From: Carcharhinus longimanus
Taxonomy: Eukaryota
Assembly: GCA_030264375.1 (NCBI GenBank)
Contig: JASCQW010000072.1
Coordinates: 84,703,884 to 84,767,883 of the forward strand
DNA: 64,000 nucleotides
Reading direction: 5' to 3'
Part shown: one piece after another, positions 10,456 through 57,730 of the stretch
Numbering within the stretch: the first letter of the stretch is position 1
Layout of the letters: the number at the start of each line of letters is the position of its first letter
The notes under the pieces: model-generated
What the model was told of the DNA's origin: nothing
The model's input: only the letters and a program-made list of their open reading frames with translations
Databases searched by the model: none
Position numbers and translations under genes: made by a program

Positions 10456-10539
10456 GAAACCCCTCGAAAGCTAGTGAGTTTTCTATCAAATAAATTGGTT
10501 GGACTAAAACCTGGTGTTGTCAGACTTTTTACTGTGTGT
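10456..10539 (+). mobile_element. Penelope-like terminal fragment inserted in Harbinger ORF1
   Basis: cgaaagctagtg..ggttggactaaaacctggtgttgtcagacttttt; same family as 36127-36270; flanked by ACCAGCA at 10449-10455 and 10540-10546. Confidence 0.75.
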
Positions 10540-10610
10540 ACCAGCAACCTGGCCAGACCAGCATCCGAAAAACAGGGAGCTGTCTTCCTGGAAGCCATTT
10601 CATCCTGCAC

Positions 10611-32845: not shown

Positions 32846-34153
32846 CTAGAATCAATAAGAAAAACACCAAGCAAAATCAGATCATCACTGTAAATAATCT
32901 CTACATTATTAAACCTAAATCAGAACTTTATGGATCATTGTGGGAAATTTCTGCTGAAAAGTTAATAATTATTACCATATTTTCTGAATCAGAGGTAAAT
33001 GACAATTGATAGCATTTTGATATTTTCAGCAATGAAGTTAGACATAAACCATTATCAACCCACAAATAAGGAGTGAGACTGCCCTTGAATTGTATTGTGT
33101 ACATGCAAGTTATGTGGTGCTATCATTTTGACATGGCTTTGAGTAAACATTTCTTGGGGTGGAGTATAGAGAAATGGATTTATGTGGGAATCATTTACTT
33201 TGTAAGAACAAATCTGCTCAACGTTCGGGGAGACATAAGTCACTCAGTTAAAAAACTAAGGGACATCAGGCATAACTAATACAACTAAAGGGTCGTAGAG
33301 TTGCGTAATGAAGTCAGGAATGGCTGTTAATGTGTACAGTGGTAACAAATTCTAGGGACAATTGAAAGTGTTTCTGGAGATATTAAAGGAGGATAAGAGT
33401 GGCTGATTCAAGAAAGATTAGACTTATTTTTATAATTGGCATAATTCATAATTTTTATATTTAGGTTAACCATGAACTGCTGTTGCAATTGTGGAAGAAA
33501 TCCCTCTTCTTATTCAGGTAATATCTAATCATCACCCAACTCTGATATAGAGGTTAGCAAAAGGATAATTCATTAACAAATAAGTAAAAGTTTATTAGGC
33601 TCTGAATTCAACAGTGTGGAGCTTGTTTGGTAGATATAAAATGGGAAATTTAGCAATGGGAAGACCAATACCTAGTTTGCAATGGACACAGACCATGACT
33701 AAATTCAACTATACTTTTATTTAAGCAGCAAATTTTGAAATGAGGTTTCTGCAGCCCTTTTCATTGCCCTTCTCTAAAGTGTGAAAAGTAGTCAAAACTT
33801 CCATTGCTCTAAACTTGGCCAACTTTTTCAAGTTCTATTGTGGCCTAACCAACAGTCCTTAAAGGGAAAGATTTATCTTGAAACTTATCTCAATGTGGAA
33901 GCAGAAGGAGCAGAGGCTACTTGAAACAGTTAGATGACTACTCCACTGAGGCACCGATTTGCCATTTCCAGCTTGTACAAAATGTCAATGAAAACCAATT
34001 GAAAAGTAATTTAGGCCTCTGAAATACCACATTGACTGGGCACAACAGGTGAATCCCCGATATTGTGTCTATTTGTGGCCCAAGCCCAAAGCTTATCCCA
34101 CATAATAATTAATGGCACACAATATGTAAAATACAATAAGAAAAATTGTTTAC

Positions 34154-34200
34154 CTGAACAGTTATTCTCGGTACAGTTCCAAACGCCACTAATGCAAATA
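34154..34200 (-). CDS. OTOG: Otogelin small exon, E1 (CICISGVWNCTENNCS)
   Basis: 47 nt, CAG/GTAAA, phase 2-1, CxCxxGxWxC pattern. Confidence 0.93.
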
Positions 34201-35559
34201 CTGCAACCAAATAAAGATATTTAAAGTGAAATGAATTGAAGTAATACTTCAATTCCTTATTAGGACATTTTTTTTAAATCAATTTACAATTATAAAAATA
34301 TGTAACACTTTGACAACAGAATATTTAGCACCATCAGAAAGAGTGAGAAATAGAAGGCAATAGCGAAATGAGGAAAATTTATTATAACAAAGTGTGTGTG
34401 TGTTCGTTCAATGCAAGGGATGGGGGATGTGAAAATATGGAAGTTGTGTATTGGAAAAAGAAGTAAGGAGAAGAGTATTAGCTTGAAACTGGTGAATAGA
34501 TGTATTGTACCAGTGTAGCTGGATAGAAGAGTGCCAATTTGAATTCAAAGAGGGGTACAATTGTCAAAATGAACTAGAAGTAGAAAGATATGTTTCTATT
34601 GCAATGCGACAGCTGGTTGGATGCCTGTGCTTCCTGTTTAGAGGTGGGGAGCATTTAATCGGGATTTTTCAACTACCTTCGCACAATTATGTCTGAGGCA
34701 GGAAGGCCAACTTAAGGTTGTTATCTTGCCACCACTGGTATTCAACACACACAGCCTGATTAAGAGGTCCAAAATCAGAAAATTGCTGGAAGTTGAGGTG
34801 GGGGGGATGCCCTCCAGTGGATGCATTATTGGCATTCCCTGGTGGCACTGCCATGTAAGTGAGAGCTTCCAGTCTCTGACAGGCAGATTTCAGAGGAGGA
34901 AGAGGAGGGGTTGCAGGATTGCCATTCCTGGGGTCTGAAATTCGGCTGGCCAAGTAAGTGCCTGATTGGCAACTAATATGGCAGAGCTTCTCTAACCACC
35001 ATCACCTGGATTAAATTTCACCCAGTGTTTCTAAACCAGACCTGGAAAAGATCAAGTGCCTCTCAGAAGCTGGGTCCCTTAGATCTTCATGTATTTATGC
35101 TTGCCTTCCACATGATCAGAAGATTACATCCAAAGATTAGAATCCATAATCTTCGGTGACACTAAGCTACAGCTGACACAAGGATACCCTTGGGTGTTCA
35201 AAAGTGTTAATTTGTCACATTTCTACTCAATGTTCATCAAACATGATCTTTAAAGTCCCACTGCCTTGTCCTTCCCATTGTTTCTTGCTGCCTGCCATGT
35301 AGACTTCTGTCTTGTGAAAAATTGTAAAACAGGAGTTACAGACAAGAAATATGTGTCTGTGAGAAGGATGGATTATTGACAATAGGACTGCGTTTCTGCT
35401 TTTATGGGTGGAAATGGGGATGCACAGTGGGTTCAGAATTGGTGTGACAGATAGTTGCACTGTTTCAATTTAGCTGAAGTGTACCTAACTTGGTGCATCC
35501 TGAGCACTCCTAGAGACTAAGTGTGAGCCTTCAGGTACCCTTGCCATAGTAGATTCCTC

Positions 35560-35850
35560 CTTCGACTGCTCCTCCTCCTTCTCCCATGTAGCATGGTTAA
35601 CATATTCCTCCTCATGCAGCTCCAATCCTCTCTGTTACACAATGTTGAGCAAGGCACAACAGACCATTATAATTCAGGACATCCTCGCTAATACACACTG
35701 AAGGGAGCCCCCAGATCTGTCCTGGCGCCTGAATCACATCTTCAGCGTTTCGATGGCTTCCTCAGTGATCACGCTTATGTTCATGTGGCTTCGGTAATGC
35801 CTTTCCTGAACATCAGTGATAGGCTTCCTCACAGGTTTCATCTGCCAGAT
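35560..35850 (-). mobile_element. Harbinger (HARBI1-like) DDE transposase C-terminal relic
   Basis: WQMKPVRKPITDVQERHYRSHMNISVITEEAIETLKM*FRRQDRSGGSLQCVLARMS*IIMVCCALLNIV*QRG follows the W.MTP..YN.SH..R..IE..G.LK.RFRCLD.SGG.LQY.P..II..CC.LHN pattern; three stops. Confidence 0.85.
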
Positions 35851-36126
35851 ACTTATAGACTGTAATCTTTGTCCCTAAGGGACTATCCATTCATATTGTT
35901 TGAAGTACGAAGATCTGTGAGAGAACTGACTGACGCAGAATGAGGCATTATGGCAAATCACTGGGAATCTTGCACATACATGGATGATGAGCTTTTGCTT
36001 GTTGTATAGCAGCTGAATTAATGAAGTGCAATTCCTTTCAATTGATGAATACTGATCAGTAATCTGAGTTGCTTTGATTGTCAAATGTGACAACATGTTA
36101 TCATTCCCTGTACCTATAGGAATCCT

Positions 36127-36270
36127 GATGTGGAGATGCCAGCATTGGACTGGGGTAAACACAGTAAGAAGTCTCACAATACCAGGTTGAAGTCCAACAG
36201 GTTTATTTAATAGTAAACCCACAAGCTTTCGGGGTATGCCCCTTCATCAGGTGAGTGGAGAGTTCTGGTC
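36127..36270 (-). mobile_element. Penelope-like element terminal fragment
   Basis: Minus strand ..aaataaacctgttggacttcaacctggtattgtgagacttcttactgtgtttaccccagtccaatgctggcatctccacatca; carries a hammerhead motif. Confidence 0.75.
36217..36256 (-). ncRNA. Minimal type I hammerhead ribozyme motif
   Basis: ACUCAC-CUGAUGA-A-GGGG(CAUA)CCCC-GAAA-GC-UU-GUGGGU: 6-bp stem I, 4-bp stem II, intact core, palindromic AAGCUU in place of stem III. Confidence 0.75.
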
Positions 36271-36349
36271 TCTGACAGAGCAATTGTGCTCTGAAAGTAG
36301 CTGCACCTCTGACCAAACTGTTCCAGGAAAGCTCAACAGGCAATTAATC

Positions 36350-36740
36350 AACAGCCTTGATCCAAGCATGAACAAAAAAATCTGAATTCAAGAGGTGAGG
36401 TGAGACTGACTGCACTTAACAAGTAGGCAGCATTTGACCATGTGTGGCATCAAGGTATCCTGGTCATGCTGAAGTCAATGGGAATCAGGGGAAAACTTTC
36501 CAATGGCTGTAGTCTTTCCCAGTACAAAGGAAGATGATTGTGCTCGTTGAAGGCCAATTATCTTAGACCCAGGACATTTCTGCAGGTCTTCGTTAGAGTC
36601 ACACCCTAGGCTCAATTGATGCTTCATCAATAACCTTCCCCTCCATCGTAAGTTCAGAAGTAGGGAAGTTCATGAATGACTGCACAGTGTTCAGTACAAA
36701 TTACAAATCCTTAGATACTGAAGCAGCTCCTACCTGGTCC
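36350..36740 (+). mobile_element. CR1/L2-group LINE reverse transcriptase relic
   Basis: EVRLTALNK.AAFDHVWHQGILVMLKSMGIRGK..QRKMIVLVEGQLS..QDISAG..FINNLPSIVSSEVGKFMNDCTVF (decayed AFD, PQG and FADD regions). Confidence 0.8.
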
Positions 36741-37660
36741 ATGTTGGACTTATTGCAGTGCATTTACCAAACCCTGAATATATGAATGTTCTTTTACTTA
36801 GTCTCTACGTAACACTTTCCAGCATCTGTCATTTTAAGTTTCAGAAGTTTCTTAGTTATTACACAATGGACTCATAGAAAAGCTAAAGGATAACTAGCTA
36901 TACAATATCAAATTATATGATAAGTAGATCAAAGTCCCATACTTTATACCAAACCTTTTCATTATTAGTTATTTTAACCAGGTGCTCAAGAGGTCTGAAT
37001 AACCATGATTCTCCCTGCAGGGCTCTTAGGAACAAATTGATGGAGGTTGAAGTCCTCTCTCCTGACAAGAACTTTCTCTACCTTATCTCCAAGTCCACCT
37101 CACAACTTGATTCAGAATTTAGTATTTCGGTCAAAGGCTTCTAAACGATGAAGGATAATTAATCATATGAACCCGAATGATCAAAAGTATAGAATTCTGG
37201 GACATTCCTATTATGTGTAATAAGGGTACTTTTCTGACATAGATCCCTTGGAAGTGAGACTTTCATTCTGGCATTGTATATTGGAAATCCAAACATACCC
37301 TTCATTCAAGGTTTGCACCATTAATGGTTGGAAAATACTACTCAGAATGCACCTGAATTCCTGATTAGCTCTCCCTGCAGAGTGAGTAAAGTCAGAAAAT
37401 CAGCTCAAGTATATTGATCCAGTATATTCTTATCACTTGTTTATATTCCTATTGTTCTCCATCTTATCATCGTTGTTGCAATTGGAGGTCTGGTTTTGTT
37501 TAAAACTCTCCCTGTCAAGTACATATTTAATAAGGTATCTAAAAACTTGAATTTACATTTATGACACATCCTCTAATACATAGCTAATAATACAAGGATT
37601 TATAGTTTTTAATGTAAAATAAATTCTACTAAAAATAGAAACAACTCCAAAGTCACTAAC

Positions 37661-37769
37661 CAGTAGGTGCATTGCTCCTGAATTTCAGAGCCTGATGTAT
37701 AGGGAATACCTTGAAACATACAAGGACACTCAGTGGGGTTCAAACAGGATCCATTTTCGTGAATTAAAC
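37661..37769 (-). CDS. OTOG: Otogelin exon, TIL-1/E1 (GLIHENGSCLNPTECPCMFQGIPYTSGSEIQEQCTY)
   Basis: 109 nt, CAG/GTTAGT, phase 1-2. Confidence 0.95.
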
Positions 37770-38009
37770 CTGTGAGAAGCAATTATATCAATTTATATCT
37801 CATTTCTAAAAACATTTTACGTTTGTCAGAAATTTCAATAGGTCATGGTATTAGAAGTTATATTCAAGACTTATGTGATAGGCAGGTGCAGGAAATTACT
37901 ATCTTTTGGATAGCCAGCTGATGAAACTGGAACTAATCACAGCATTTCAGTAACAATATTCATGCATCAAGAAAAATTTGATTGTTCTGTAAGAATACTT
38001 TTTTAACAA

Positions 38010-38640
38010 TGACAACCGTATATTTACAACAGTATCTTTAATGTAATGAAACATCCCAAGATACTTCACAGGGATAGTATAAGACAAAGCATGAGACCAA
38101 GCCACATGGTAAGTTTTGAGGTTTGTCTTAAAGAAGGAAAGCATGGGGGTGGATGGGACAGGGGGTGGAGCGGGGGGGTTGGAAAAATATGCCAGAGCAA
38201 CTGAAGGCACAGCCACCAACAGTACAGTAATTAAAATGGGAATGCACAAAAGGTCAAGAGCACAGATTTCTTGAAAGGTTGTGAGAGTTTACAGTGAGTT
38301 GTGGGGGGAGTGGGCAGCTTCGGAGGGAAGGATGAAAATTTTAAAATCAAGACATTACTTGACCAGGAATAATTGTAGGTCAGCGAACACAGTAATGAAA
38401 GTGGAATGCAACATGCTGCAAGTTAAGCAGAGGGTGGGATGTGGGAAGCCAGCCAGGATTGCTTTGGAATAAGAGGTGATGGAGAAATGAAGGTTTCAGC
38501 AGCAGATGGACTGAGGCAGGGTGGAGTTGGGTCGAAATAGGCAGTTTTTATGATGTTACAAATATGACGACGCTCACCTCAGGTTGAAATGTCACACCAA
38601 GGTTACAAATAAACTGACTTAATGGACTGTTCAATTAAAA
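38010..38640 (-). mobile_element. L2-type LINE 3' portion, old
   Basis: Tail cctgtgaagtatcttgggatgtttcattacattaaagatactg; internal aaccttggtgtgacatttcaacctgag. Confidence 0.6.
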
Positions 38641-57624: not shown

Positions 57625-57730
57625 CAACAAATACAGAGAATGCTGGAAAATTTCAGTAGGTCTGACAGCATCTGTGGGGAAAGAATAGAGCCAATGTTTC
57701 GAAGCCAGATGTCCCTTCATCAGAGCTGGA
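57625..57730 (-). mobile_element. Penelope-like terminal fragment with hammerhead-like core
   Basis: Minus strand agctCTGATGAagggacatctggcttcGAAAcattggct..cacagatgctgtcagacctactgaaattttccagcattctctg. Confidence 0.7.

Follow-up and report, generated by a model that had tools for sequence, protein, structure and literature searches.

Here, we present an analysis of the minus-strand sequence at 36217-36256 in a 64,000-nt stretch of Carcharhinus longimanus DNA (the window). We find that it is a minimal hammerhead motif on the 156-bp clipped end of a Penelope-like element (PLE), and that this lone copy is very probably inactive, or nearly so, and without a role in its host gene. The motif class is already known, as that of the minimal hammerhead ribozymes (min-HHRs) of PLEs described by Cervera and de la Peña (2014; PMC4209133). 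The coordinates of all features are collected in Table 1.

Table 1. Features of the motif, the stub that carries it and the host intron (window coordinates)
Feature	Position	Strand	Basis
Host intron, 3,460 nt, GT-AG, likely OTOG gene	34201..37660	-	Between TIL-region exon 37769-37661 and next exon 34200-34155
5'-truncated pLTR stub, 156 bp, of an apparently Neptune-type Penelope-like element, with the long "tailed" 3' end	36127..36282	-	Copy alignments
7-bp fold-back at 5' junction, CAGAGCA-caat-TGCTCTG	36276..36293	-	Sequence
Minimal type I hammerhead motif	36217..36256	-	Sequence, fold, family comparison
Stem I 5' strand, ACUCAC	36251..36256	-	Sequence and fold
Core C3-A9, CUGAUGA (36250-36244), and extra A (36243) before G10.1	36243..36250	-	Sequence, copy comparison
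Stem-loop II, GGGG-CAUA-CCCC	36231..36242	-	Fold, copy comparison
G12-A13-A14, AGCU palindrome (A15.1-G-C-U16.1), U17	36223..36230	-	Sequence; numbering per hammerhead consensus (PMC4209133)
Stem I 3' strand, GUGGGU	36217..36222	-	Sequence and fold
AAUAAA hexamer of pLTR, sense to host pre-mRNA	36202..36207	-	Sequence; present across subfamilies
Optional ~35-nt PLE tail, ending at the base before the element's ATG	36127..36162	-	Two 3'-end classes; loose ends at 36126-7 and 36160-3; ORF start

The initial annotation placed the motif in an otogelin intron, sense to the gene. The sense orientation was confirmed, because VWD and C8 exons pass the Pfam cut-offs on the minus strand, accompanied by a weak TIL exon below cut-off. 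Further VWD and C8 exons and an exon encoding 778 aa rich in Thr, Ser and Pro lie up to ~130 kb downstream. A protein search to name the host gene gave no match. A single myogenic-factor gene that reads like MyoD is located 536 kb downstream on the same strand; elsewhere on the contig, another VWD gene is separated by ~0.35 Mb from a pair of myogenic-factor genes. Together with the synteny of OTOG with MYOD1 and of OTOGL with MYF5/MYF6, the VWD/C8/TIL gene and its MyoD-like neighbour point to OTOG. The host gene is therefore likely OTOG, with the motif in one of its GT-AG introns.

The letters of the motif read exactly as first quoted, with the full CUGAnGA/GAAA/UH core in type I order. The GAAA box (36230-36227) is followed by GC, U16.1 (36224) and U17 (36223), so that the predicted cut, after U17 in the standard hammerhead numbering, falls between 36223 and 36222. 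G 36242 and C 36231 form the G10.1-C11.1 pair, and the unpaired A 36243 sits between A9 and G10.1. Both claimed stems were confirmed by sequence and fold: stem I joins 36256-36251 with 36222-36217 in 6 bp, including one U-G, stem II has 4 bp, and the 40-mer folds into the two stems with -13.8 kcal/mol (z -1.88; 9 of 200 shuffles were as good). Helix III is absent; positions 15.2-16.2 are palindromic (A-GC-U), and the helix III of a dimer consists of A15.1-G-C-U16.1 (AGCU). The palindrome AAGCUU, which had been proposed to replace stem III, is present in this copy; however, because A14 and U17 belong to the core, only U17 copies have the 6-nt form, and the conserved palindrome is AGCU.

The Rfam hammerhead models, which had been suggested as a check, gave no match at E<=10 in 34000-38500, where the scan returned six chance matches; this is expected for a motif without helix III. 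A loose core pattern matched the window 15 times, with overlaps, at 6 places, and 2 of 100 shuffles reached 15; inside the window this pattern alone is weak evidence. By comparison, exact core patterns matched the 2.68-Gb genome of the same organism 5,648 times with a 12-nt spacer and 24,317 times with a 13-nt spacer (29,965 in total) versus 3 and 5 times (8 in total) for reversed controls, arguing that the motif is not due to chance. A CUGAUGA...GAAA match at 57693-57723 was rejected as a further hammerhead, since it has neither AGCU nor a pLTR tail. The antisense of the motif (36248-36256, plus strand) reads CAG/GTGAGT, a consensus 5' splice site, which is irrelevant to this minus-strand gene and relevant for antisense copies in other introns.

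The proposal that the motif lies in a Penelope-like terminus is supported by longer copies, in which it accompanies an ORF for reverse transcriptase (RT) and a GIY-YIG endonuclease and the pLTR also precedes the ATG of that ORF. A 141-bp query returned 1,531 first-look candidates in the same genome, the best 40 of which have 91-100% identity. Upstream of the motif, long copies encode RT motifs and a VYLIRCRKGCPEAWYIGET endonuclease with a CX4CxxC linker. The RVT_1 Pfam match in these copies is below cut-off (E 1.7e-4), and a Pfam search of a 343-aa ORF found no GIY-YIG family; the putative GIY-YIG assignment rests on a reading of motifs. In the ORF of locus L092, we read a C-terminal GIY-YIG whose GIY and YIG enclose two Cys (CCHH), together with a CX2-5CxxC linker. 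PMC8557442 describes these traits for the Neptune clade, and the element appears to be of the Neptune type by domain layout.

The motif lies downstream of the ORF encoding RT and GIY-YIG in L091-L120 and upstream of an ATG in L259 and others. The sequence runs from the tail into an ATG at 137 genomic places, and in 2 of 25 loci fetched the reading continues for ~700 nt as MTTIDTANC...NLSDYTL...GLNFCP. The translation of one such locus, L263, shares an overlap with the translation of L092, which bears the RT; the ORF is thus bordered by the repeat at either end. Pieced together from partial copies, with no single full-length one among them, the full element reads pLTR-ORF(RT, CX4CxxC linker, GIY-YIG)-pLTR, with the motif and its predicted cut site 96 nt upstream of the start codon and a second occurrence of the motif past the stop codon. 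Stubs with the long 3' end terminate at the ATG of the element (36126-36127 in the window; L259, L263), and so one start of reverse transcription would lie at the start codon. In L264, L269 and L278, the ORF start is joined directly to the start of the hammerhead motif after 37-75 nt, which suggests template jumps onto the motif's 5' end.

Compared with the majority sequence of the 29 copies closest to it, the stub in the window has 8 differences in 156 positions (5.1%), which equals the median divergence of those 29. Two of these changes fall inside the motif: N7 is U instead of the subfamily's C (a CpG site), and loop II is CAUA instead of CAAA. Since both positions are tolerant, this copy would be as competent as its parent. 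No target-site duplication was found at the stub, the longest word common to both flanks being 5 nt, and 36283-36360, searched as possible captured local DNA at the 5' junction, had no match in 464 kb. The fold-back at this junction may be a very short inversion or chance. A decayed LINE-type reverse transcriptase fragment adjoins the stub (36358-36720, plus strand) and has relatives elsewhere in the region. A second pLTR stub, of the A17 type, lies at 10462-10542 on the plus strand, antisense to the gene and truncated inside stem II. The AAUAAA of the pLTR is found in all subfamilies, with a GU-rich stretch ~20 nt further on; as an effect on the host, a cryptic poly(A) site here may be more plausible than ribozyme cleavage.

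For stub ends, we used 96 copies selected through an anchor that lies downstream of the cut; 72 of these copies are uncensored at the 5' end. Family stubs have two fixed 3' points and a variable 5' truncation, often with an inverted piece: the 3' ends form two classes ~35 nt apart, at offsets 54-57 (33 copies) and 90-91 (26), and an inverted piece at the 5' junction occurs in 31 of the 72 uncensored copies. A tail and an inversion are signatures of PLEs according to PMC8557442 and PMC11167929, and all the insertion traits of EN+ PLEs, i.e. 5' truncation, an adjacent inverted copy and an optional tail of 30-40 bp, are found in the family. The copy in the window is truncated and tailed, with at most the 7-bp fold-back. 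Twelve of these 72 copies begin within the first bases of the motif (offsets 32-37), with six at offset 35, in a small sample with positions uncertain by ~2 nt; the copy in the window starts 65 nt upstream of the anchor, outside this cluster. As for a cleavage footprint, only two of the 72 start at the cut offset, which at the low power of this comparison is not above the level of about one per offset.

The initial annotation suggested that the intron may contain a cleavable site. Our data do not support this for the pre-mRNA, nor that this copy is notable, given ~30,000 core-bearing copies, about a third of comparable copies equally intact, no partner in the intron, core decay at background rate and an insertion that seems restricted to a lineage. 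In a monomer, helix III cannot form, because a loop of 2 nt is too small to be closed by its pair. The strand-swapped, active double hammerhead has a predicted energy of -25.1 kcal/mol compared with -27.6 kcal/mol for two monomers, and the A14-U17 register, which is open to U17 copies only and would block the core, has -27.7 kcal/mol. By these nearest-neighbour energies, which leave out tertiary contacts of the core, the dimer is not predicted to be favoured over monomers. In the intron context, stem II has a predicted probability of at least 0.92, and stem I one of 0.01-0.57 depending on the length of the flanks. Metazoan min-HHRs are described in PMC4209133 as without cleavage as monomers and with slow or low cleavage as dimers; in PMC11167929, a PLE hammerhead of Anolis cuts only with protein, and RNA-seq gave no reads ending at its cut site. 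Most likely, the copy in the window is a neutral relic, with stem I poorly predicted in context and little or no predicted effect on the host.

The fate of the other inserted copies is consistent with such a relic. The motif is spanned by 43 of the 96 anchored copies; a further 33 are truncated or rearranged within it, and the other 20 contain N. The exact core is kept in 23 of the 43 motif-spanning copies, 15 of which also keep G10.1-C11.1 and both stems. Non-CpG mismatches affect 14 of 516 core positions versus 26 of 760 control positions (P 0.52), in a small sample of copies with <=3 mismatches per box, a limit that lowers the core rate. Core positions thus appear to decay at background rate, suggesting that inserted copies are not under selection for the ribozyme. 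A strict intact pattern with this type of stem II has 466 matches genome-wide; because many copies are equally intact, the intactness of this one needs no special explanation. None of the 26 stubs in the 464 kb around the window is a second sense copy in the host intron. Downstream, the nearest sense copies lie at 49 kb, with a broken core, and at 68 kb, with decayed stems; upstream, the nearest is at 52 kb. The stub at 10462-10542 was rejected as a dimer partner, being antisense and without a CUGANGA box.

Comparison across subfamilies points the other way for active elements. Among 118 core-bearing copies, the extra base between 9 and 10.1 is A in 117, a count partly fixed by the search patterns. 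The initial annotation named a family consensus without covariation in stems I and II as evidence against a hammerhead. Stem II does covary, on both sides: G-C and A-U alternate at II.2 (87/12), II.3 (60/42) and II.4 (67/23), mutual information in the stem is highest on the pairing diagonal (0.24, 0.58 and 0.41), and in 16 hand-picked rows three of the four pairs change on both sides, although related rows inflate such counts. Stem I, however, has almost no double-sided change: its inner three pairs are near-invariant (paired in 102-106 of the 118 copies), and its outer pairs have one-sided changes (U-G/U-A, C-G/U-G) or are broken. G10.1-U11.1 pairs, found in 34 of the 118 copies, are consistent with CpG decay. 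At position 17, subfamilies differ in having U, A or C (U 72, A 28, C 14 and G 4 in the same set), and G17 occurs in 681 of the 29,965 core matches (2.3%). The covariation of stem II between subfamilies and the avoidance of G at 17 argue that active elements kept the ribozyme and that it is, as judged from these patterns, under selection in them. An NUU cleavage context would be slow; UU (U17) is the majority state of this subfamily and not a defect of this copy. By eye, an upstream CCACU in the A17 subfamilies L037, L035 and L059 could pair with AGUGG across the cut site, hiding A17. The N share of the 464-kb region around the window is 6.4%, and apparent tandem duplicates separated by N runs (L130/L131, L083/L084, L204 and others) are probably assembly-gap artefacts.

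The insertion is probably limited to close relatives, since the element was entered in organisms B, C and D and left in F, G and I. In B, C and D, where the flanks have diverged by 2-4%, the contigs continue past the flank through 24-49 nt of the element and end in repeat, which suggests that the insertion is common to the three; among them, a 31-letter bridging rule at the junction was passed by C only. In F, G and I, where flank divergence is 8-10%, the contigs track the flank as far as 36107-36127 before passing into other sequence, and the element is apparently absent at the site in these three of three informative more distant relatives. In G, the 12 letters beyond the junction do not match the window's other flank, so that the empty site is only partly resolved.

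By analogy with published PLE work, we infer that a tandem transcript of the parent element would have its two hammerheads pair via AGCU, or be helped by the element's protein, and cut slowly, processing the element's RNA; reverse transcription would begin at the tail and stop early, leaving stubs. In the otogelin pre-mRNA, the single copy, with neither helix III nor a partner in the intron, would be removed uncut with the intron. It is improbable, in our view, that the copy is instead a conditional site, at which a pLTR copy acting in trans or a PLE protein causes low-rate cutting of the pre-mRNA and the spliced mRNA is little affected. The core and stems are intact, ~30,000 core-bearing copies exist genome-wide, so that nuclei may contain trans partners, the same gene holds half-copies whose AGCU-U-GUGAGU substrate strand is intact (window coordinate ~-68,000), and the PLE protein activates the Anolis hammerhead in vitro (PMC11167929). 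However, the folding energies do not favour the dimer, the sense copies nearest to this one all lie outside the intron, at the distances given above, the long copies whose translations were inspected (4 of 30) carry stops and frameshifts, and the core is neither depleted nor enriched among copies. On a larger scale, thousands of intact, sense, intronic PLE hammerheads could make up a latent system that cuts host pre-mRNAs, including that of otogelin, when PLE protein or pLTR RNA is present. We consider this very unlikely; if true, it would leave a genome-wide deficit of intact sense intronic copies and would give metazoan minimal hammerheads their first activity in vivo.

A domesticated role of the sequence in regulating otogelin splicing or expression, comparable to that of the conserved intronic hammerheads in amniotes, is suggested by the sense orientation of the motif in a likely OTOG intron and by an insertion apparently common to B, C and D. 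We regard it as extremely improbable, because the motif is without stem III, tertiary loops or an Rfam hammerhead match, the element is apparently absent at the site in F, G and I, the 5.1% divergence is just the median of the closest copies, and the mapped part of the gene carries five stubs in sense and four in antisense. It is also unlikely, albeit worth weighing for the parent element, that the hammerhead-like sequence is retained for a function other than cleavage, e.g. as a protein-binding or reverse-transcription stop signal. According to PMC11167929, hammerhead mutants left insertion in vitro unaltered; moreover, stub 5' ends cluster at the first bases of the motif (12/72) and not at the cut site (2/72), and the inner three pairs of stem I are invariant rather than covarying. 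Against this, the constraints that cleavage chemistry imposes are seen: G17 is avoided with A, C and U allowed, N7 varies freely and the catalytic core is complete. Such a function concerns the parent element and is compatible with a stub that is a relic.

The assignment to the minimal type I, dimer-type hammerheads of PLEs, made at the outset, holds against the published class. In PMC4209133, Cervera and de la Peña describe min-HHRs in the pLTRs of metazoan PLEs, including the vertebrate Xena, Poseidon and Neptune, and liken their extra nucleotide to one in some canonical hammerheads. As in that class, the shark motif is of type I with a full core, an extra nucleotide at 9/10.1, G10.1-C11.1, palindromic 15.2-16.2 and no helix III, and it occurs mostly solo, in elements that are truncated, with thousands of motifs per genome that fall into several consensus families; it differs from that class in a short stem II (4-5 bp) and a stem I of up to 6 bp. 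The 29,965 exact core matches exceed the 4,000 reported there for coelacanth and the 9,000 for Xenopus. The element also resembles Poseidon PAc of Anolis carolinensis (Frangieh et al. 2024; PMC11167929) in its pLTR-ORF-pLTR order, a hammerhead at the pLTR-ORF junction and an optional 30-40 bp tail that gives two 3' ends. However, the PAc ORF starts inside the ribozyme, whereas here the ATG lies 96 nt downstream of the cut; the PAc tail reaches 111-118 nt into the ORF, whereas here the long 3' end stops at the ATG; and a Neptune-type Cys linker sets the shark element apart.

Non-LTR retrozymes, as described in bioRxiv 10.64898/2026.07.22.740005, likewise carry a type I hammerhead in a PLE-derived non-coding repeat and are reported in one chondrichthyan, with many intronic copies in Xenopus. 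However, they consist of tandem units each with a ribozyme, whereas we have a solo stub of a coding PLE. A search for tandem and local repeats found no array or repeat at the motif site, and membership was rejected, as the site has no tandem units and a single copy. The domesticated amniote hammerheads of RECK, CTCL and DTNB (PMC6155905) are similarly of type I, sense and intronic; in contrast to the shark motif, which has no helix III, is multicopy and is apparently confined to close relatives, they are conserved across whole classes. We found no literature on PLE hammerheads in sharks, which are not named in the searched parts and supplements of PMC4209133, one supplement file apart, and a search of literature titles found no paper on this PLE hammerhead family.

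Altogether, the single locus matters little, as one relic among tens of thousands. The family, with ~30,000 core-bearing copies in several subfamilies, provides the numbers to test in vivo cutting by min-HHRs through the strand bias of intronic copies and the ends of stubs. Whether metazoan PLE minimal hammerheads cut in vivo is a question raised by PMC4209133 and PMC11167929, and the shark family is test material for it.
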